From the IMG/VR virus record IMGVR_UViG_2690316131_000020: 8,206 nucleotides of DNA; one strand, 5' to 3'. The translations under genes were made by a program, and so were the position numbers. Each line of letters begins with the position of its first letter. Positions within the stretch are counted from its first letter, which is position 1. Below are positions 1 through 6,468 of the stretch, one piece after another. The notes beneath the pieces are model-generated. The model had not been told where the DNA came from. It saw only the letters and a list, made by a program, of their open reading frames with translations, and did not search any database. Source of the stretch: a virus (taxonomy: Duplodnaviria > Heunggongvirae > Uroviricota > Caudoviricetes).

Positions 1-942
1 CTAAATAGGCTGATTCGATGTGTTTACGGGAAAAAAATCGGCCCAGATCCGCGAAATTTTAATCAGCGAGTCAGCTTGGGAAGAAATGACCTGCTTATTC
101 GCACCTTCCCTAACCGCTCCTGATTCGGTTTTTATTACCGCCTCATCAGTTGGAGTTATAACCGTGGCTTCAACGTTAATAATCAGCTTTTGAGCGTCTA
201 TCAGCATCATGCGATCCGCCTGTTCGCTCACAATTACCGGTATTCTCAAAAGCTCTATCTGCCAGAACTCAGCATTAGTAAGCTGTAAGGCGTTTTCTAC
301 GGGCAAGATTAGCGACGACGTGGCAAGCGTGTTACCGTTCGCTATGTGCTTTTTGAAAAGCTCTATGAAGTTTTCGGCCTCATCAGCACCATTAAGCACG
401 CCCTCAGGGGATACGCCCGCCAACTCCTGGTCACTGGAAAGAAATTTTTTATCTATTTCTTTCACCGATTCCGATGTGATCAAGTCTCTGATCGCTGAAT
501 TGGTACCAGGGGTGCTAAATTTGATTAGCTCGTTATTCAGCATCACAATAGCGCCGAGTTTGTACAGTTTTAGCGAGCTTTCGCTTACTTCTCCCCCTTT
601 TACTGGGATTTCTTCGGCCTCTTTAAGCCATTTACTCCCCTTGCCTGATATTGATTGCAATTTTGCGCCAAAGGGAAGATTAAGCGCACTACTGATTAAC
701 TTGCCAGGTACAGACTGCGAAAAAATATACCCGCCCAGCTCTCTTGCTATCGGCTCAGCCACCAGCGACGGAAGGTTATCCGTGTTCATTCCTGCTACTA
801 CGGATTTTTCAAGGAATAACGAGACAGCCGGATCATTTCTTTTCGTCATCTCTATAGCGTCAGCATGGCTAAATTTACACGATGCCAGCACGCTGGCGGC
901 GCGAACTGCTGACACGCCTTTCATGTTTTTACAGATCATCAT
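1..942 (-). CDS. Putative major capsid protein, HK97-like fold (313 aa); family assignment tentative
   Basis: Complete ORF with TAG stop at 1-3 and ATG at 940-942, preceded by a strong SD (AGGAGGAGGAAG directly upstream). It lies downstream of the terS-like gene. The segment KEIDKKFLSSDQELAGVSPEGVLNG resembles the conserved FL-GDG-G-P-G-L region of HK97-family capsid proteins, and size and composition fit. No Walker A motif, so TerL is unlikely. Confidence 0.5.
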   Translation of the reverse strand: MMICKNMKGVSAVRAASVLASCKFSHADAIEMTKRNDPAVSLFLEKSVVAGMNTDNLPSLVAEPIARELGGYIFSQSVPGKLISSALNLPFGAKLQSISGKGSKWLKEAEEIPVKGGEVSESSLKLYKLGAIVMLNNELIKFSTPGTNSAIRDLITSESVKEIDKKFLSSDQELAGVSPEGVLNGADEAENFIELFKKHIANGNTLATSSLILPVENALQLTNAEFWQIELLRIPVIVSEQADRMMLIDAQKLIINVEATVITPTDEAVIKTESGAVREGANKQVISSQADSLIKISRIWADFFPVNTSNQPI

Positions 943-1090
943 CTTCCTCCTCCTGGAAGCACGGTGTTAGTGTTTCGTGAAAATATGGCATCAGAATAGC
1001 GGCGGCCTGTAACCGTATTTCGGTCGGCTGCTGCTTGTCGTTCATGATTTCCGTTAGTACCTCGATCGGGTCTGTTATGTATTCGCTCAT
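929..1090 (-). CDS. Small hypothetical protein (53 aa, MSEYITDPIEVLTEIMNDKQQPTEIRLQAAAILMPYFHETLTPCFQEEEDDDL)
   Basis: Below the ORF-track length cutoff; found by manual translation. ATG at 1088-1090 with GAGG about 10 nt upstream, overlapping the TerS stop. Its stop overlaps the start of the capsid-like gene (ATGATGATCTGTAA), suggesting translational coupling. Acidic C-terminal tail. Confidence 0.3.
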   Translation of the reverse strand: MSEYITDPIEVLTEIMNDKQQPTEIRLQAAAILMPYFHETLTPCFQEEEDDDL

Positions 1091-1101
1091 AGTTCGCTAC
1101 C

Positions 1102-1590
1102 TCAGTGTTTTAGGGCTGTTGGTGGCTTAGGGATGGGAAAGCGGTTTGATGAAACATTGGTAGCATTGAGTTTTTTTACCTCTTTTTTACCAATGCTGCT
1201 GATCTTGCGGTGGGTGAACTGGGCCAGCTTAAACGCGGCATCTAAAGCCAGTTTTGGATCTGTGTCCATGTTGTCAATCAGTATCCTGCCCATTGCTTTG
1301 ATGGGGTCGGGTAGGCCGTTATCCATCATCTCAATGGTGTTAATTGATGCCCGTTCCGGTGTAACTTTTTCGGTAACTTTCTTTGTAACTTTTTTCGGTT
1401 TTGTAACCTGAAAAGTTACATCAGAAGTTACAGCCTTAAGATACTTTTTCACCTCAGGATCATTGGATAGCTGCCAGCCTTTAACCCTTGCGGTCTTTTC
1501 GCTGTATCCCGCATGTATAGCGGCTTCCGTGGGATTTGCGCCCCTTGATAACGCATCAGCAAACCGCTTTTTTTTGGTCGTTAATGCCAT
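1102..1590 (-). CDS. Terminase small subunit homologue (162 aa)
   Basis: N-terminus MALTTKKKRFADALSRGANPTEAAIHAGYSEKTARVKGWQLSNDPEVKKYL matches the conserved HTH region of phage TerS proteins (KQ-F---Y--G-N-T-AAI-AGYS-KTA). ATG at 1588-1590 with GAGG 7 nt upstream. The longer track ORF (to 1728) would use GTG without an SD and overlap the upstream gene, so the ATG start is preferred. Confidence 0.7.
   Translation of the reverse strand: MALTTKKKRFADALSRGANPTEAAIHAGYSEKTARVKGWQLSNDPEVKKYLKAVTSDVTFQVTKPKKVTKKVTEKVTPERASINTIEMMDNGLPDPIKAMGRILIDNMDTDPKLALDAAFKLAQFTHRKISSIGKKEVKKLNATNVSSNRFPIPKPPTALKH
1361..1431. repeat. Cluster of GTAAC/GTTAC pentamer repeats inside the terS-like gene (4 direct plus 2 inverted copies); further copies upstream at 1613-1635
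   Basis: Plus-strand GTAAC at 1361, 1373, 1385 and 1403; GTTAC at 1415 and 1427. These encode the repeated KVT motif (VTFQVTKPKKVTKKVTEKVT) in TerS. Two more GTGTAACTTTT copies lie in the noncoding leader at 1613-1623 and 1625-1635. Confidence 0.55.
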
Positions 1591-1717
1591 GCAAAAACCT
1601 CGTTTTGAGGGGGTGTAACTTTTCGTGTAACTTTTTTGAAAAGCAAAATTTTCTACGAATGAGACGGGGGGCGGTGTCCAGGGCGATCGACTTTCCGGCC
1701 GGAACACTCCCCCCCTG

Positions 1718-1879
1718 TCATTGCTCACCGAGTAACGAGATCAGGCCTTCAACTTCATCACTCAGCTTGTTTATTCGTGTCTCAAGCTCTGCGATCTTTT
1801 CCATCAATGGCGCTATGGTGTCTCTTGTTTCCTCGCCAATGGCTTTAATGATGCTTGCCTCGCGTTCTGTGATAGCCAT
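1718..1879 (-). CDS. Small hypothetical protein (53 aa, MAITEREASIIKAIGEETRDTIAPLMEKIAELETRINKLSDEVEGLISLLGEQ), likely coiled-coil
   Basis: Below the ORF-track cutoff; found by manual translation. ATG at 1877-1879 with GAGG about 10 nt upstream. Tight junction with the upstream ORF stop (TAA ACA ATG). Heptad-like helical sequence. Confidence 0.4.
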   Translation of the reverse strand: MAITEREASIIKAIGEETRDTIAPLMEKIAELETRINKLSDEVEGLISLLGEQ

Positions 1880-1882
1880 TGT

Positions 1883-2077
1883 TTACGCCTCACTTGTTGC
1901 AATGCCCAGGCGTTCGCGTAACAGTACGCGCGCAAGATGCCCTATTGTTGGTGTTGCCGCCCTGCCGTAGATACCTGATTCATTCATCCGGCGCACAATA
2001 TCGAACTGCAACTTTTTAAGCTCGTTAAGGATTTCATGATCAATCATCACGGTAGCGCTTTGCTTTATCTCTTCCAC
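1883..2077 (-). CDS. Small hypothetical protein (64 aa), GTG start
   Basis: GTG at 2075-2077 preceded by a strong SD (AGGAGA, 7 nt spacer). The internal ATG at 2047 has no SD. Sequence ...ILNELKKLQFDIVRRMNESGIYGRAATPTIGHLARVLLRERL could be a small DNA-binding fold, but this is not established. Confidence 0.45.
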   Translation of the reverse strand: MEEIKQSATVMIDHEILNELKKLQFDIVRRMNESGIYGRAATPTIGHLARVLLRERLGIATSEA

Positions 2078-2164
2078 TTTGTTTTCTCCTGATACTTATC
2101 ATTGCATAACCAGTATTTTCGATAGATTATCATTAATTAACCATCTTTGAAGATATATGAGATC

Positions 2165-2189
2165 GAAAAAAAGCCGGATTGCTCCGGCT
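2165..2189 (-). terminator. Intrinsic terminator (minus strand)
   Basis: On the minus strand: 7 bp stem AGCCGGA / TCCGGCT with a 4 nt loop, followed by a run of 7-8 U. It lies about 20 nt downstream of the stop of the 81 aa ORF. Confidence 0.6.
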
Positions 2190-2207
2190 ATGTGCTCACT
2201 TCTTCGG

Positions 2208-2453
2208 TTATTCTCCAGCGCTTTTAACGTTGATGGTTGTTACCTGTTCCGCTTCGGCAATCTCCCGTTCTGTCAGCGTGGCAAAGTTTGCCGCCGCTGT
2301 GGTCATGAATGCGCTTATCAGTTCGGGATGCTCCTTCGCGTATCCTTCCCCCGCGTGGCGGTCTATCGTTCTGATTGCCACCTTTAAGGAAAGCTCTGTC
2401 ATGTCTAACGCTTTATATTTTGGCGCTGTCTTATCTCTGGTTTTTCTGTTCAT
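2208..2453 (-). CDS. Hypothetical protein (81 aa)
   Basis: ATG at 2451-2453 with GGGGAG/GGGGA SD-like sequence upstream (derived from the iteron sequence). Followed by a strong intrinsic terminator. No recognisable motif. Confidence 0.45.
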   Translation of the reverse strand: MNRKTRDKTAPKYKALDMTELSLKVAIRTIDRHAGEGYAKEHPELISAFMTTAAANFATLTEREIAEAEQVTTINVKSAGE

Positions 2454-2657
2454 TCCCCACTACTCCCCACTTTTGCTCCCCACTTTTTGAAATTACCCAC
2501 CGTCTCCCCACCTCTTTTTTTTGTGATTCTAACGTTATGTTTTTCAATATGTTTTTTACTCCCCACTTTTTTGGGTATATACAGGTGGGAAAGTGGGTAA
2601 TTATGTTTCAATTTTGTTAAATTCCCCACTCCCCCCACTTTTACTCCCCACTTTTTA
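2453..2657. repeat. Iteron array flanking an AT-rich stretch: candidate replication origin of the element
   Basis: About 9 direct copies of (T)CCCCAC(TTTT) (cores at 2455, 2465, 2477, 2495 degenerate, 2507, 2561, 2624, 2633, 2646) plus inverted copies at 2584-2597 (GGTGGGAAAGTGGG). They flank an AT-rich segment at about 2513-2557 that includes a T8 run. The array starts at the 3' end of the replication initiator gene, as in SaPI/PICI-type origins. Confidence 0.6.
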
Positions 2658-4055
2658 CAGCGGGCGCACGTCATCACCGTCAATAACGATTACGCCATCA
2701 TTTTCCAGCTTGTACAGCCAGCGCCGGAAGTGCTTCATCTCATACCCCAGCTTTTTCATATCGTCGCGGAGAAGGGCGATAGTGCACGCCTCCCCGTGTG
2801 CTGTTCGTGTTCTGATGCACTGCCATAGCGCGGCGTGATTCTCCGTCTTGTTCCCTGCCTCCTCGATGCGCTCCAGTTCAACGGGAGGGCGCGGCTTATC
2901 CACCACCACCAGCGACGTGATTAACTCCCCGTCAGCGTCGGTAAAAAGCTCCACCACGCGTAAGTCATATGCTGCTTCTTTGAGTTCCTCCGCGTCCTTC
3001 ATTTTGGTACATGAGATAACCAGCGCTTCGCTGCCTGCGTCCTCCCTGCGTATCCGGTATTCGGCGTCCAGTGATGCACGAAATGCACTGGAACCACGCG
3101 CCCCCTTTGTTTCATCCTTGCCGGAATGGTGAACCACCAGCACCGTTGCCCCTGTGCGCCGTTTCAGTTCGTCACACCCACGGATAAACGCCCCCATATC
3201 ACGGGAATCATTTTCATCATTGCCGCCAAAGCAGCGCGCCAGCGTATCCAGAATAATCATTCGAACCGGTTTACCCGTTTCCCGTTCCACCTGACGGGCA
3301 GCGATAACCATTTCCTCAACATCAAGCGGGGCAGCCGGAAAGATGGGACGGTTTACCAGATACAGATTTTTCACCTGCTCATCGTGCACAACCTCCCAGG
3401 CTTTTACACGACGCGGAACACCTATACCGCCTTCACCAACCACATAGAGAACCGCACCATGTGCAACCCTGCTGCCTCCCCACTGGCGACCAGTGGCAAC
3501 ATGGCACGCCCACGATCCGGCAAGGAATGATTTATAGGACCCGCTAGCCCCGTATATGCTGCATAGCGATACCGCCGGAATAATCCCCTTAACCACGTAA
3601 TCCAGTTGCGTGTCGTATCCGGTAGATCCAACGCTCATCGGTAGCGTGGTTTTTCGCTGGTGGTTTTTTTCTTCCGCCGGCTCTTTCCCGCGCACCCGTT
3701 CCAGGTATTCGCGCCAGTTCTCCCGCATATGGCTGTGCATCCCTTCGGGGTAATAATTCGCATCAGTTACACCCGCCGCCGCCAGCTTGTGCGCAATGGC
3801 ATTAATATTTGATGGCCTGATGTGGCCTGCCTTGTACAGCCGGACACAATAGCGCCCCTCGTCGATGATTCTCAGGTCTGCCAGTTCATCCAGTTGATCA
3901 TCAGCCAGCACAACGGGAGGCACATTATCGCCAGCCAGTCGCCCGTCCTGTTCCTGCCACTGTTTCGCATGTGCCCAGGCATCACTACCCGCAAAAATAA
4001 TGACTTCGGTCATCTTGTCGTAAGGCTGTTTTTTTAAGTTCGGTGCGCTTTTCAT
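2655..4055 (-). CDS. Replication initiator / helicase-like protein (466 aa): RecA-fold RepA-type (AAA_25-like) ATPase core, N-terminal domain of uncertain type, C-terminal winged-helix-like tail
   Basis: Walker A GASGSYKS, Walker B-like RMIILDTLARCF, and VLVVHHSGKD typical of RepA / DnaB-like loader ATPases. ATG at 4053-4055 with AGGGG SD (6 nt spacer). ATGA overlap with the upstream 99 aa ORF. The iteron origin follows immediately downstream. Confidence 0.85.
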   Translation of the reverse strand: MKSAPNLKKQPYDKMTEVIIFAGSDAWAHAKQWQEQDGRLAGDNVPPVVLADDQLDELADLRIIDEGRYCVRLYKAGHIRPSNINAIAHKLAAAGVTDANYYPEGMHSHMRENWREYLERVRGKEPAEEKNHQRKTTLPMSVGSTGYDTQLDYVVKGIIPAVSLCSIYGASGSYKSFLAGSWACHVATGRQWGGSRVAHGAVLYVVGEGGIGVPRRVKAWEVVHDEQVKNLYLVNRPIFPAAPLDVEEMVIAARQVERETGKPVRMIILDTLARCFGGNDENDSRDMGAFIRGCDELKRRTGATVLVVHHSGKDETKGARGSSAFRASLDAEYRIRREDAGSEALVISCTKMKDAEELKEAAYDLRVVELFTDADGELITSLVVVDKPRPPVELERIEEAGNKTENHAALWQCIRTRTAHGEACTIALLRDDMKKLGYEMKHFRRWLYKLENDGVIVIDGDDVRPL

Positions 4056-4351
4056 TTCTTGCCCCTGAATCCGTTAACCATGGTTTTCAGCTTCTGGATG
4101 TTTGCCCGTGCCCTGGCGTTGCTGGTGGGCACGTTATGCGGCGCGGTCTGTACCAGAGAAAAATCACGCCGGAACTGATAAACAGGCATCACGCAATCAT
4201 ATTCGTAACCTTCACGGCGGTAAGTTACGCACCGTCCCGCCACGCCCTTAATCATTACCGTGCCGCCGTACTGGTCGCGGTAAATATCACCGCGCATAAA
4301 TTTAGGGTGAGTGTTGCCACTGGCAGTTAAGCCAGAATATTTAAGTTTCAT
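4052..4351 (-). CDS. Hypothetical protein (99 aa), translationally coupled to the replication initiator
   Basis: ATG at 4349-4351 with GGAGA SD (about 10 nt spacer). Its stop overlaps the rep start (ATGA). Motif DIYRDQYGGTVMIKGVAGRCVTYRREGYEYDCVMPVYQF; family not identified. Confidence 0.6.
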   Translation of the reverse strand: MKLKYSGLTASGNTHPKFMRGDIYRDQYGGTVMIKGVAGRCVTYRREGYEYDCVMPVYQFRRDFSLVQTAPHNVPTSNARARANIQKLKTMVNGFRGKK

Positions 4352-4356
4352 TATTT

Positions 4357-4591
4357 TTATTCTCCGGTGTGCTGTTCGTTATATCTGTCGTGCAATGTCT
4401 CTATTTCCTGCAACTCATTTATTACAGGCTCAAGAAGCGTTATTAATGATGTAATAATCCGCGTTTTTTTTTGCATTACGTTCATTATCGCCAAAGGATT
4501 CAAGGCACATCCGCAATATTTCGTACATACCTTCAGCGTAAGCAAGGGCACTAAATGCGCGGTCTATTGTTTCAAGATAAATATCACGCAT
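4357..4591 (-). CDS. Small protein encoded in two overlapping frames joined at an A9 tract: frame 1 from ATG 4591 ends at 4430 (53 aa); the +1 frame continues to a stop at 4357
   Basis: ATG at 4589-4591 with GGGGA SD (5 nt spacer) gives MRDIYLETIDRAFSALAYAEGMYEILRMCLESFGDNERNAKKNADYYIINNAS. The overlapping frame (...QKKTRIITSLITLLEPVINELQEIETLHDRYNEQHTGE) lacks a good start but ends 5 nt before the next gene's ATG. The T9/A9 run is at 4464-4472. Confidence 0.35.
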
Positions 4592-4592
4592 A

Positions 4593-4814
4593 TTAATCCC
4601 CGTCCGTTGTTTTTCTTAAAACAGCTTCTGTCACGAAATCAGCATAGTTAGCGGCAATATCAAGAATATTTAGCCCTGTACCTCTGTGCTCATCAGTGCA
4701 AAGAAAGAAAAAAGCCACCCGCATAATTTCAGATATTGACGAAAGCGCATCAGCCGCATCATCAGGAACGCCGGAAAATTCTTGTTTCAGGGAATTAAAA
4801 CGATCATCACGCAT
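4593..4814 (-). CDS. Small hypothetical protein (73 aa, MRDDRFNSLKQEF...)
   Basis: ATG at 4812-4814 overlapping the stop of the upstream ORF (ATGCGTGA), with a G-rich SD-like run upstream. The track ORF was trimmed to this start. Confidence 0.45.
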   Translation of the reverse strand: MRDDRFNSLKQEFSGVPDDAADALSSISEIMRVAFFFLCTDEHRGTGLNILDIAANYADFVTEAVLRKTTDGD

Positions 4815-5028
4815 AACCCCCCCCATTTTCACAATCAGCAACAAGAATATTTTTAGCGTCATTCAGCGACCGCGTTGCGATGTATCGGATACATTCCAGG
4901 GCGAACGTTGTCCGGTCTTTCTGTTCTTCTCCCTGCGCAAGCTCTGCCGTGCATTCAATATCAATAAGCGCGTGCATCAGCGTAGTGAGCGCGGCGGCGG
5001 CTGCGTCCGGTGTGGTTTTATTGCACAT
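4807..5028 (-). CDS. Small hypothetical protein (73 aa, MCNKTTPDAAAAALTTLMHALIDIECTAELAQ...)
   Basis: ATG at 5026-5028 with a strong SD (AGGAGG, 6 nt spacer). Overlaps the 3' end of the upstream small ORF by 11 nt. Confidence 0.5.
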   Translation of the reverse strand: MCNKTTPDAAAAALTTLMHALIDIECTAELAQGEEQKDRTTFALECIRYIATRSLNDAKNILVADCENGGGYA

Positions 5029-5209
5029 GGCACACCTCCTGACGAATACGGGCGGCGAATACAGCAACACAACCGGACGGGCAACGGCTACGTGCTTCGC
5101 GTTCCGTCCAGGCGGTTACGTGGATGATTTGATGTTCTGACGCGCCAAAGATGATAAAGCGCCAGAGAAAGGCGGTTTGAGAATGTACAAGGGTAGGGAT
5201 AGTAGCCAT
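5018..5209 (-). CDS. Small protein, copy A of a tandem paralogous pair (63 aa, MATIPTLVHSQTAFLWRFIIFGASEHQIIHVTAWTE...)
   Basis: ATG at 5207-5209 with a strong SD (AGGAGG, 8 nt spacer). The N-terminal 15-20 codons are paralogous to the ORF starting at 5578, with differences mostly at third codon positions. It is the 3' part of the long 409-codon track ORF. Confidence 0.55.
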   Translation of the reverse strand: MATIPTLVHSQTAFLWRFIIFGASEHQIIHVTAWTEREARSRCPSGCVAVFAARIRQEVCHVQ

Positions 5210-5369
5210 GTTGGCAGCCTCCTCAGTGTGGTTAAGATAACCGCCACCGGAAACGCCAATTTCGCTGGTGGCGGACTGTACAGGGTTGGCGTAACCGGAC
5301 ACTGAAGAAACCGGCGCGGATTGCTCCGCCCCCGTACAGCCCACCATTGATAAGGTGTGACTATGCGGC

Positions 5370-5395
5370 ACAAAAAAACACGCGGGGCGCGTGTT
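5370..5395 (-). terminator. Intrinsic terminator-like hairpin plus U7 (minus strand), inside the stop-free frame between copies B and A
   Basis: On the minus strand: stem ACACGCG / CGCGUGU with loop CCC, followed by 7 U (the complement of the plus-strand A7 at 5372-5378). Confidence 0.4.
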
Positions 5396-5578
5396 ATGCG
5401 CTTCAGTTTTGCCCAGGACGCCAATCCCGGCACCCGTTTTATGAGGTGCGCGGGAATCATAGCTATTTTCGACACTGGCGATCAACTGGTTTTTTTCTCC
5501 GATATTCAGGGCCAGAAAACGCCACACAAAGGCCGTTTGTGTGTGTACAAGGTGTGGTATATGATTTACGGCAACCAT
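5396..5578 (-). other. Copy B of the tandem paralogous leader ORF (MVAVNHIPHLVHTQTAFVWRFLALNIGEKNQLIASVEN...); no in-frame stop before copy A
   Basis: ATG at 5576-5578 with AGGAG SD (5 nt spacer). Paralogous to copy A. The frame stays open through a terminator-like hairpin into copy A, so its real 3' end and coding status are unresolved. Confidence 0.3.
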
Positions 5579-5666
5579 AACGGCTCCTAGTTTACGTTGT
5601 TGGTTAGACGCCCCGTATGTGTTCCCAGCACTGCGGGGCGTTGATTTTTGTGTAATGGCAAGTACA

Positions 5667-5711
5667 ATGGTAATTACCATGTAGGTATAGTAATGAAGGG
5701 TAATTACCATG
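5667..5711. promoter_or_regulatory. Two palindromic operator-like sites in the divergent control region: ATGGTAATTACCAT (5667-5680, perfect 14 bp palindrome) and AGGGTAATTACCAT (5697-5710), with a -10-like TATAGT at 5686-5691
   Basis: The perfect palindrome is repeated 30 bp downstream, where it overlaps the start codon of the Arc-like gene. An AAGGG SD lies 8 nt before that ATG. The sites sit between the plus-strand RHH gene and the minus-strand leader ORFs. Confidence 0.5.
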
Positions 5712-5882
5712 TCAACACCATTAGAAAAACGTTCGCCTCCATACCAAATGCGATTACCGGAAGACTTCAGAGCGCAGCTAGAAGAAGCAGCTAAGGCCGA
5801 TGGCGACACATCTTTAGCCACTTGGATTAAACGCGTTCTCCGCAAAGAATTACAGCAACGCGGCATAGAACCCAAAGGATAA
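5709..5882 (+). CDS. Arc/MetJ-type ribbon-helix-helix DNA-binding protein (57 aa), candidate repressor
   Basis: Below the ORF-track cutoff; found by manual translation: MSTPLEKRSPPYQMRLPEDFRAQLEEAAKADGDTSLATWIKRVLRKELQQRGIEPKG. The RLPE-D/E-L...EAA...G-x-T/S...I...L pattern is typical of Arc-like RHH domains. An in-frame stop lies just upstream at 5694, and the palindromic operators overlap its promoter and start. Confidence 0.7.
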   Translation: MSTPLEKRSPPYQMRLPEDFRAQLEEAAKADGDTSLATWIKRVLRKELQQRGIEPKG

Positions 5883-5924
5883 AAACTATCAGCGCCGTGG
5901 TGTGAGGTATTACGGCGCATTGCT

Positions 5925-6113
5925 ATGCAGGACAACACAATGACCGATAAAGAATTGACCAAAACATTATCACCGGCACGGAAAAGACGGCGCAGAAAGA
6001 TAGAGCATGAATCAGAAAGATTCGCGCCATGTGCTTTTGCCCTTGAGCAATTCCTTAAAGAGTACAGGGAAAAGCGCTCATTGCAGGTATGGCAACGAAC
6101 TGAACCAGACTGA
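5925..6113 (+). CDS. Hypothetical small basic protein (62 aa); weak call
   Basis: ATG ORF downstream of the Arc-like gene and upstream of the terminator at 6209-6235, but with no convincing SD. The antisense frame is part of the rejected 409-codon ORF. Confidence 0.25.
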   Translation: MQDNTMTDKELTKTLSPARKRRRRKIEHESERFAPCAFALEQFLKEYREKRSLQVWQRTEPD

Positions 6114-6208
6114 TTGCATTGCCCACCAGCCTGATAGCGGCTATCATCCCCGTGCTTATGTTTGGGATCACATACACATAAGGCGCAGCGGGTTAATTGT
6201 TCAGAAAG

Positions 6209-6235
6209 GCGGCTCCATATCGGGGCCGCTTTTTT
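6209..6235. terminator. Intrinsic terminator, probably bidirectional, between the convergent plus-strand RHH operon and minus-strand alpA
   Basis: Stem GCGGCUCC / GGGGCCGC (8 bp with one G-U pair), loop AUAUC, then T6 on the plus strand. On the minus strand the same hairpin is followed by CUUUCU. It lies about 30 nt downstream of the alpA stop. Confidence 0.6.
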
Positions 6236-6261
6236 CGTGTTTGTCATATCTGTGATACCCG

Positions 6262-6468
6262 TTAAGCAGCCGTTCCGCGTGCTTCCTCTTCGCGTTCTTT
6301 CTGCCAGGACAACACATCATCCTCATACCATCCGCGACGGCGTAAACCAACGCGAAAACCCTGCGGAAATTCTCCGGCGTTGATCATGCTTTGCAGCGTG
6401 CTGTCTGCCTTGATGTGGATAATTTTTTTTACTTCCTGGCGAAAGATAATTTTTCTGATTGCTTCCAT
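6262..6468 (-). CDS. alpA: AlpA-family phage transcriptional regulator / excisionase-like HTH protein (68 aa)
   Basis: Motif ...FRQEVKKIIHIKADSTLQSMINAGEFPQGFRVGLRRRGWYEDDVLSWQ matches the AlpA family signature (G-K/E-FP...R..GW.E.D...W). ATG at 6466-6468 with AAGGT SD. Positioned two genes from a P4-type integrase. Confidence 0.85.
   Translation of the reverse strand: MEAIRKIIFRQEVKKIIHIKADSTLQSMINAGEFPQGFRVGLRRRGWYEDDVLSWQKEREEEARGTAA

Follow-up and report, generated by a model that had tools for sequence, protein, structure and literature searches.

A probable Rep-dependent replication origin in the Escherichia coli PICI EcCI11368.1 and its co-variation with the C-terminal domain of Rep

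Introduction

Phage-inducible chromosomal islands (PICIs) have their origin directly 3′ of the gene for the replication initiator, according to the text of Fillol-Salom et al. (2018; PMC6092414). For E. coli PICIs it describes two iteron sets around an AT-rich region 3′ of rep, and it states that this organisation of iterons is common to all PICIs identified by its authors. According to the same text, the rep-ori segment of EcCICFT073 maintains a temperature-sensitive plasmid only when rep and ori are both intact, and P4 is treated as a separate lineage. The papers on cf-PICIs and on EcCIMP1 contain no origin detail.

For SaPIs, the Rep protein is both an initiator and a self-loading helicase, and its C-terminal winged helix recognises iterons of five or six nucleotides (Qiao et al. 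2022; PMC9371898). The SaPI origin consists of 6–12 iterons right after the rep ORF, with an AT-rich centre and opposed iterons beside it, and the motors of SaPI Reps are of the AAA+ SF3/MCM-like 3′–5′ type (Qiao et al. 2022; PMC9371898).

Here we describe a repeat array located directly after the rep gene in an 8,206-nt stretch of DNA (IMG/VR record IMGVR_UViG_2690316131_000020; Caudoviricetes), which we refer to as the window. An original prediction, made from the letters of the DNA, had proposed that this array forms an iteron-controlled origin. Our comparison with related islands and with described systems indicates that the array is very probably the replication origin (ori) of the PICI EcCI11368.1. 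A Rep-dependent origin is supported because its position, its anatomy and the comparative evidence agree. The island is already catalogued and the layout of such origins is already published, and the array is thus a known feature.

Results

The island and its gene content. The window matches E. coli O26:H11 strain 11368 at NC_013361.1 3041748–3049953. Table S1 of Fillol-Salom et al. (2018; PMC6092414) lists EcCI11368.1 at AP010953.1 3041660–3050231 (8.5 kb, yejM-luxR site), and because the window coordinates fall within the listed interval, the island is an already catalogued PICI of E. coli O26:H11. Many Shiga-toxin E. coli chromosomes contain the DNA of the window with 100% identity, flanked by tRNA-Pro/yejM on one side and by yejO on the other, and EcCI11368.1 is 100% conserved across many O26, O111 and O103 Shiga-toxin strains. 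The genes are all on the minus strand and include those for an integrase, an AlpA-like regulator, DUF4222, a RepA/AAA_25 helicase, a small terminase and a capsid-like protein. A PICI is characterised by int, alpA, unidirectional genes and its own att site, and by having no lysis or tail genes; the element conforms to this description, with int, an AlpA-like gene, rep, terS and a capsid gene on one strand beside tRNA-Pro/yejM. Pseudogenes are present in the 8.5-kb island, and because of these and of its shortness the replicon could be inactive in this one strain.

Islands with the same integrase and the same tRNA-Pro/yejM site differ in their right-hand modules (window 1–2100 compared with 1–5900 of locus L007). 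The island of strain Ch1 has SSB, PerC, ProQ/FinO, capsid and decoration genes in this module; that of the window has only two small ORFs, the small terminase and, at the end of the island next to yejO, a capsid-like gene. It may be that the 8.5-kb island is reduced or recombinant. Elsewhere in the window, Rfam detects a C4 antisense RNA (77.6 bits) and an isrK Hfq-binding sRNA (66 bits), which are adjacent at 5264–5351 and 5373–5449 on the minus strand. This stretch contains Icd-like and Ash pseudogenes according to RefSeq and yields a spurious 409-aa ORF (5018–6247); it resembles a c4-icd immunity-like module of the P1/P7 type, here carried by a PICI.

The repeat array. The array occupies the whole interval from the rep stop codon (2655–2657) to the start codon ATG (2453) of the next gene. 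As had been predicted, about nine direct and two inverted copies of the repeat lie within some 200 bp: nine CCCAC cores start at 2456, 2466, 2479, 2496, 2507, 2562, 2625, 2634 and 2647, and two inverted GTGGG cores are found at 2585 and 2593 in plus-strand coordinates, all within 2456–2651. The cores of 5–6 nt are spaced 9–17 nt apart, and the best copies extend to CTCCCCACTTTT(T), or 12–13 nt (families D1 and D2), which agrees with the 10–12 bp motif of the prediction. The repeats were also said to abut and overlap the 3′ end of rep, and they do so, by two bases of the stop codon, which belong to the last repeat (2644–2656); the first repeat abuts the ATG.

Such a concentration of repeats is far from what the composition of the window would provide. 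Exact CCCCAC occurs ten times in the window on both strands together, compared with a mean of 3.7 in whole-window shuffles, none of which (0/200) reached ten, and eight of the ten copies are at 2455–2651, all on the plus strand. Eleven of the 25 copies of the 5-nt core fall within 205 bp, where 0.36 would be expected from the rest of the window (Poisson P = 2.3e-13); across 500 Markov-1 randomisations, the largest 205-bp cluster contained six core copies.

The array is likewise confined to one setting in other genomes. Searched alone, it matches 376 places in 333 of 5426 E. coli genomes, with one to three matches per genome, all of them chromosomal and all at this locus, and of the 36 occurrences of the 10-mer CCCCACTTTT in 833 kb of loci, 33 fall in the first 330 nt past rep. 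These distributions dispose of the concern, raised together with the original prediction, that the repeats might be a common interspersed repeat of many unrelated loci. RefSeq has no annotation under the array in 29 of 30 cases among the matches listed, and the three ORFs that overlap the array, at 2375–2620 (+), 2450–2683 (−) and 2593–2838 (+), exist mechanically; the original prediction had called them spurious. An Rfam scan of the whole window gave no match within the array.

Anatomy of the candidate origin. The features of the region are collected in Table 1. Read in the sense of rep, their order is three direct iterons, AT-rich tract 1, one or two inverted iterons, TATATAC, one direct iteron, AT-rich tract 2, four or five direct iterons and the next gene. 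The prediction had placed a single AT-rich core among the repeats; AT-rich DNA is indeed present within them, but as two tracts and a central dyad.

Table 1. Features of the candidate origin and of the genes on either side of it (window coordinates)
Feature	Position	Strand	Remark
81-aa conserved PICI gene	2208–2453	−	Directly downstream of the candidate origin; phrog_1231 E=6e-48, no assigned function
Rep-distal iteron cluster, five direct copies	2453–2511	+	Cores 2456, 2466, 2479, 2496, 2507
AT-rich tract 2	2512–2557		78% AT; 40-mers in the top 0.15% of the window; second most AT-rich stretch
Dyad core	2562–2597		CCCAC 2562–2566; 26-nt spacer with TATATAC 2576–2582; GTGGG 2593–2597
Two inverted iterons	2585–2597	−	GTGGG at 2585 and 2593 on the + strand; the outer copy (2593) is the family-wide dyad arm
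AT-rich tract 1	2598–2623		88% AT; separates the inverted iterons from the proximal cluster
Rep-proximal iteron cluster, three direct copies	2624–2656	+	Cores 2625, 2634, 2647; last copy overlaps the rep stop codon
rep, 466-aa initiator-helicase	2655–4055	−	N-terminal domain of ~125 aa, RepA/AAA_25 RecA-fold helicase core, C-terminal winged helix
Rep C-terminal winged-helix domain, presumed iteron-binding	2658–2855	−	Residues ~401–466
His442 codon (CAC)	2730–2732	−	Residue directly before helix 3; read from sequence

Conservation of repeat number in related islands had been proposed as a check. In an alignment of the gap downstream of rep in seven diverged E. coli islands, the repeat positions are kept. 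Those of the proximal cluster are kept in all seven and across the wider Rep family described below. The dyad, defined as an inverted iteron, a spacer of 20–30 nt and a direct iteron, is present in 70 of the 79 family loci and starts at a median of 54 nt past the rep stop codon. Its spacer is 24 nt in 56 loci and 26 nt in 10, and contains TATA in 68; only four dyad-like patterns occur in the remaining ~789 kb of the family loci. Tract 1 is only moderately AT-rich across the family (median 64%), and tract 2 is the family's most consistently AT-rich element, with a median of 78% AT in 70 loci compared with a background of 52%. On this basis the unwinding region is most plausibly placed in tract 2. 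For the dyad, a role as hairpin or cruciform is not supported, as single-stranded DNA folds there no better than shuffled sequences do (z = −0.33).

An exact-consensus search of 2400–2700 on both strands found no DnaA box (TTWTNCACA), IHF site (WATCAANNNNTTR), GATC or oriC-type 13-mer. No sigma-70-like site was detected in a promoter scan of 2150–2950, and the only relevant terminator-like hairpin in that interval is at 2189–2172, past the 81-aa gene. This hairpin (2172–2189, minus strand) is followed by a T-run and lies ~20 nt after the gene. Its placement suggests a single transcription unit whose last part comprises rep, ori and the 81-aa gene, so that transcription would run through the origin. 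On the gene strand, the second of the distal repeats has the sequence GGGGAG and lies 9 nt upstream of the next gene's ATG; judging from the sequence, it could serve as a Shine-Dalgarno element. In E. coli PICIs the origin is invariably followed by the 81-aa gene (phrog_1231), irrespective of the Rep allele, and an SSB gene comes next in relatives; the 81-aa protein may be a replication accessory factor.

The Rep protein. Rep matches Pfam AAA_25 (E=2e-43) and phrog_2850 over its full length, and its RefSeq name is 'helicase RepA family protein'. In a PDB sequence search it gave a weak match to RSF1010 RepA (1G8Y, E=0.004, residues 150–321) and none to P4 alpha or SaPI Rep. The full-length AF2 model has a mean pLDDT of 62 and is poor outside the N- and C-terminal domains. 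Its C-terminal domain has a pLDDT of 85–93, with helices predicted at 405–419, 426–435 and 443–452 and strands at 456–459 and 462–465, and the C-terminal 72 residues modelled alone by AlphaFold (pLDDT 85) also form three helices followed by a beta-hairpin wing. In the full-length model His442 lies just ahead of helix 3 (443–452), the presumed recognition helix. Foldseek relates the domain to PcaR, DtxR/IdeR (including DNA complexes) and the MCM4 winged helix, with TM scores of 0.6–0.73; the weak E-values are to be expected from the small size of the domain.

Several further features of the Rep family were noted. The Walker A motif, GASGSYKS (residues 169–176; 3528–3551, minus strand), is atypical in that it has Tyr, or Phe in some relatives, in place of the usual Gly before Lys, and it is invariant in 30 aligned homologues. 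Residues 1–125 (3681–4055, minus strand) share 62% identity with the N-terminal part of the Pri-Rep of EcCICFT073 (L089:2242–2616), despite the unrelated cores of the two proteins. This N-terminal domain has no Pfam match and is modelled as an alpha/beta fold with a pLDDT of 70–90; it is a portable domain with no assigned function. Longer family members of ~690 aa in Xenorhabdus, Serratia, Pectobacterium and others (loci L010, L050 and L057 among them) contain this helicase and winged-helix domain as well, but fused to an N-terminal zinc finger and Toprim-like primase. The 466-aa Rep of E. coli is without a primase domain, and priming must therefore come from elsewhere.

Co-variation of Rep and iterons. 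Among the seven E. coli islands, the core type shifts jointly at every copy of the repeat, including the inverted one, from CCCAC (the window, Ch1, AR_0085, O43 and AR145.2) to CTCAC (two O157-type islands). The corresponding Rep proteins are mosaic. Rep of the window and Rep of O157 are 97% identical and differ in the last ~60 residues, and the E105 Rep, at 64% identity overall, nevertheless has the O157 C-terminus together with O157 iterons. At the DNA level, the window and O157 are 100% identical over most of rep, fall to 52–73% from ~210 nt before the stop codon to ~200 nt after it, and return to 83–100% in the 81-aa gene (comparison with locus L002), although their iterons differ. O157 and E105 show the complementary profile, with 45–80% identity across rep and 98–100% from −221 nt onward. 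The C-terminal domain and the array are therefore inherited as one cassette of ~400 bp.

We extended the comparison by scanning one genome per species, which yielded 80 more loci with a member of the Rep family; hosts include Xenorhabdus, Pantoea, Kosakonia, Pectobacterium, Serratia, Morganella and a metagenome-assembled Oceanospirillaceae genome. Co-variation was scored in the 72 loci with at least four sites, out of 79 compared, which represent ~25 genera. The Rep position scored is the residue that precedes F/L in the motif K-x-[FL]-x-[RK]-W, which is His442 in the window, and it was compared with the fourth base of GTGNG. The two agree in all 72 loci without exception: His (14/14) and Lys (25/25) are found with G (GTGGG), Asn with A (GTGAG; 25/25) and Ser with C (GTGCG; 8/8). 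When mapped on a neighbour-joining tree of the C-terminal domain, five changes of the iteron base are inferred, and all five clades have an altered residue too, with Asn arising in three separate clades and Ser in two.

Together with the predicted fold, these comparisons are strong indirect evidence that the C-terminal domain of Rep would be the part that reads the repeats, and the iterons appear by the same token to be cognate to the island's own Rep. At the level of sequence, co-variation shows a cognate Rep/iteron pair and is silent on what binding achieves. The 81-aa protein and the DUF4222 region were also considered as iteron binders and were rejected, since neither co-varies with the iterons; for example, EcCICFT073 encodes an 85-aa homologue that is 77% identical to the 81-aa protein of the window, and yet its iterons are unrelated.

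Comparison with other replicons. The segment 2453–2657 lies directly 3′ of rep, the site of Gram-negative PICI origins (directly 3′ of rep or pri-rep), and has two iteron sets, of 5+1 direct copies and of three direct and two inverted copies, around the tracts of 78% and 88% AT. The island with a tested origin, EcCICFT073 (L089:1–8655), has the order DUF4222, rep, a 288-bp gap, the 85-aa gene, SSB, PerC and capsid. The window resembles it in the succession of DUF4222, rep, ori and an 81–85-aa gene, with SSB and PerC next in relatives, and in having iterons near AT-rich DNA. The initiators, in contrast, are non-homologous in their cores, which are of the D5_N/DUF5906/Pox_D5 (P4-alpha-like) type in the Pri-Rep of EcCICFT073 and RepA/AAA_25 in the window, and the iterons are TCTACC-type as opposed to CCCCAC. 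Because only the first ~125 residues of Rep are common to both and the iterons differ, the window has a different Rep/ori allele of the same module.

Another member of the Rep family is found in CP018459.1 (locus L090), which was deposited as a circular Klebsiella pneumoniae plasmid of 16,971 bp. It has int, capsid, head-tail adaptor and terminase genes, a rep gene at 5081–6445 and an ori at 4867–5080 of the same layout; its iterons are GTGCGGC, and the C-terminal domain of its Rep is of the Ser type. This record is really a capsid-forming-PICI-like element, and it may be an excised, replicating form captured by assembly.

The resemblance to SaPI origins is also close. There are 11 copies of a 5–6-nt core after rep, including a dyad of opposed copies, and Rep has a predicted C-terminal winged helix. 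SaPI-type origins are also characterised by ATP-independent binding and melting that needs no loader. The motor of the window Rep, however, is a RecA-fold enzyme (AAA_25, RSF1010 RepA-like), and not a homologue of the SaPI motor. By analogy, the origin of the window would work like a SaPI origin without belonging to that group by descent, the likeness being one of architecture and not of motor homology.

The closest solved relative of the helicase core is RSF1010 (IncQ) RepA (1G8Y). IncQ plasmids use a separate RepC, which binds iterons of ~20 bp, and a separate primase. The relationship is limited to the helicase core, as the DNA-binding domain of the window Rep is fused to its helicase, and no gene for a RepC-like initiator or a RepB primase was found among the window ORFs scanned. 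P4 alpha is a satellite primase-helicase whose C-terminal winged-helix origin-binding domain reads short repeats, and the longer members of the Rep family, in Xenorhabdus, Serratia and Pectobacterium, are similar to it in having an N-terminal primase. The P4 helicase is, however, of SF3 type, and ori and crr of P4 are separate sites and not one array after the gene.

The origins of pSC101, R6K, F, P1 and RK2 have iterons of 17–22 bp, a dedicated non-helicase Rep, DnaA boxes and host DnaB loading. Like these, the window has repeated initiator sites beside AT-rich DNA and the rep gene. Unlike these, its cores are 5–6 nt, its sole Rep is a helicase, and 2400–2700 contains no exact DnaA or IHF consensus. 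The original prediction of a classic iteron-controlled origin is thus upheld in so far as a Rep-dependent origin is supported, but the origin is of the PICI/SaPI kind and not of the classic plasmid kind.

Discussion

Beside the observed anatomy, its conservation and the observed co-variation of Rep domain and iterons, we infer a series of events by analogy with SaPI Reps and with the tested rep-ori of EcCICFT073. The island would excise after induction. Rep, as a RecA-fold, RSF1010-RepA-like helicase that would act as a hexamer, would bind the GTGGG(G) cores via its C-terminal winged-helix domain, in which the N-terminal end of helix 3 (Lys441-His442) is the probable point of contact. Copies of Rep would bind on both sides of the central dyad and at the flanking direct clusters, three iterons being rep-proximal and five rep-distal, and hexamers would assemble on either side of the dyad. 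Bound Rep would then open AT-rich DNA, at 2512–2557 and/or at the TATATAC centre, and would load itself as the replicative helicase, without DnaA.

There are other scenarios for the array. It could be mainly an operator through which Rep or another island protein controls downstream transcription or translation, the origin being elsewhere or absent. The distal repeats do abut the next start codon, where one of them provides the Shine-Dalgarno-like GGGGAG, and there is no terminator between rep and the downstream gene, so that the array is co-transcribed. A regulatory site of this kind is nonetheless difficult to reconcile with the lack of a sigma-70-like promoter in or near the array, or with a dyad and AT-rich layout that is retained in 70 of 79 loci whatever gene comes next. 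Co-variation, moreover, points to the helicase as the binder and not to a regulator, and neither the 81-aa protein nor the upstream DUF4222 region changes with the iterons. We consider it improbable that the array is mainly an operator, and possible that it has a secondary autoregulatory role.

Because the gene for the island's small terminase (1102–1728) is ~0.7 kb downstream, the array might alternatively be the pac site of that enzyme. Arrays of the same type accompany different packaging modules, however, which are cos/Rpp-like with capsid and decoration genes in locus L002, capsid-forming with portal, HNH and TerS in locus L003, and TerS in the window; the core sequence follows the C-terminus of Rep and not the packaging genes, and a pac site is accordingly very improbable. 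We give still less credence to the view that the array is a simple repeat, non-functional or interspersed, without any role that depends on its sequence. The C/T-rich, low-complexity look of the array and the spurious ORFs across it might invite such an interpretation, but it is at odds with the restriction of the array to one chromosomal locus in E. coli and of CCCCACTTTT largely to the DNA just past rep, and with an architecture and concerted core changes that are conserved across genera.

For the Rep-dependent origin that we favour, a more detailed proposal can be made. Recognition would be nearly a matter of one residue and one base, with His or Lys specifying G, Asn specifying A and Ser specifying C; the cassette of C-terminal domain and array would be exchanged between unrelated Rep backbones; and a RecA-fold helicase would have converged on the self-loading design of SaPIs and viruses, with the TATATAC dyad as the site of assembly and melting. 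As a joint account we hold this tentatively, and regard it as somewhat more apt to fail in one of its parts than to be correct in all of them. We did not find the residue–base rule, the exchangeable cassette or the conserved dyad described in the PICI and SaPI origin papers (for PMC6092414, in its text), and they are refinements of what those papers describe.

Finally, we note what the origin means for these elements. It would be the place where a phage satellite starts to copy itself after induction by a helper phage, and this copying underlies the very high transfer frequencies of PICIs among pathogenic E. coli. A practical consequence for annotation is that the 200-bp gap after a gene for a 'helicase RepA family protein' in such islands deserves the label of an origin, and that ORFs spanning the gap should be ignored. 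If the co-variation rule is confirmed, it would allow one to predict from sequence which co-resident PICIs cross-activate each other's origins, and how a Rep might be re-targeted to another origin.
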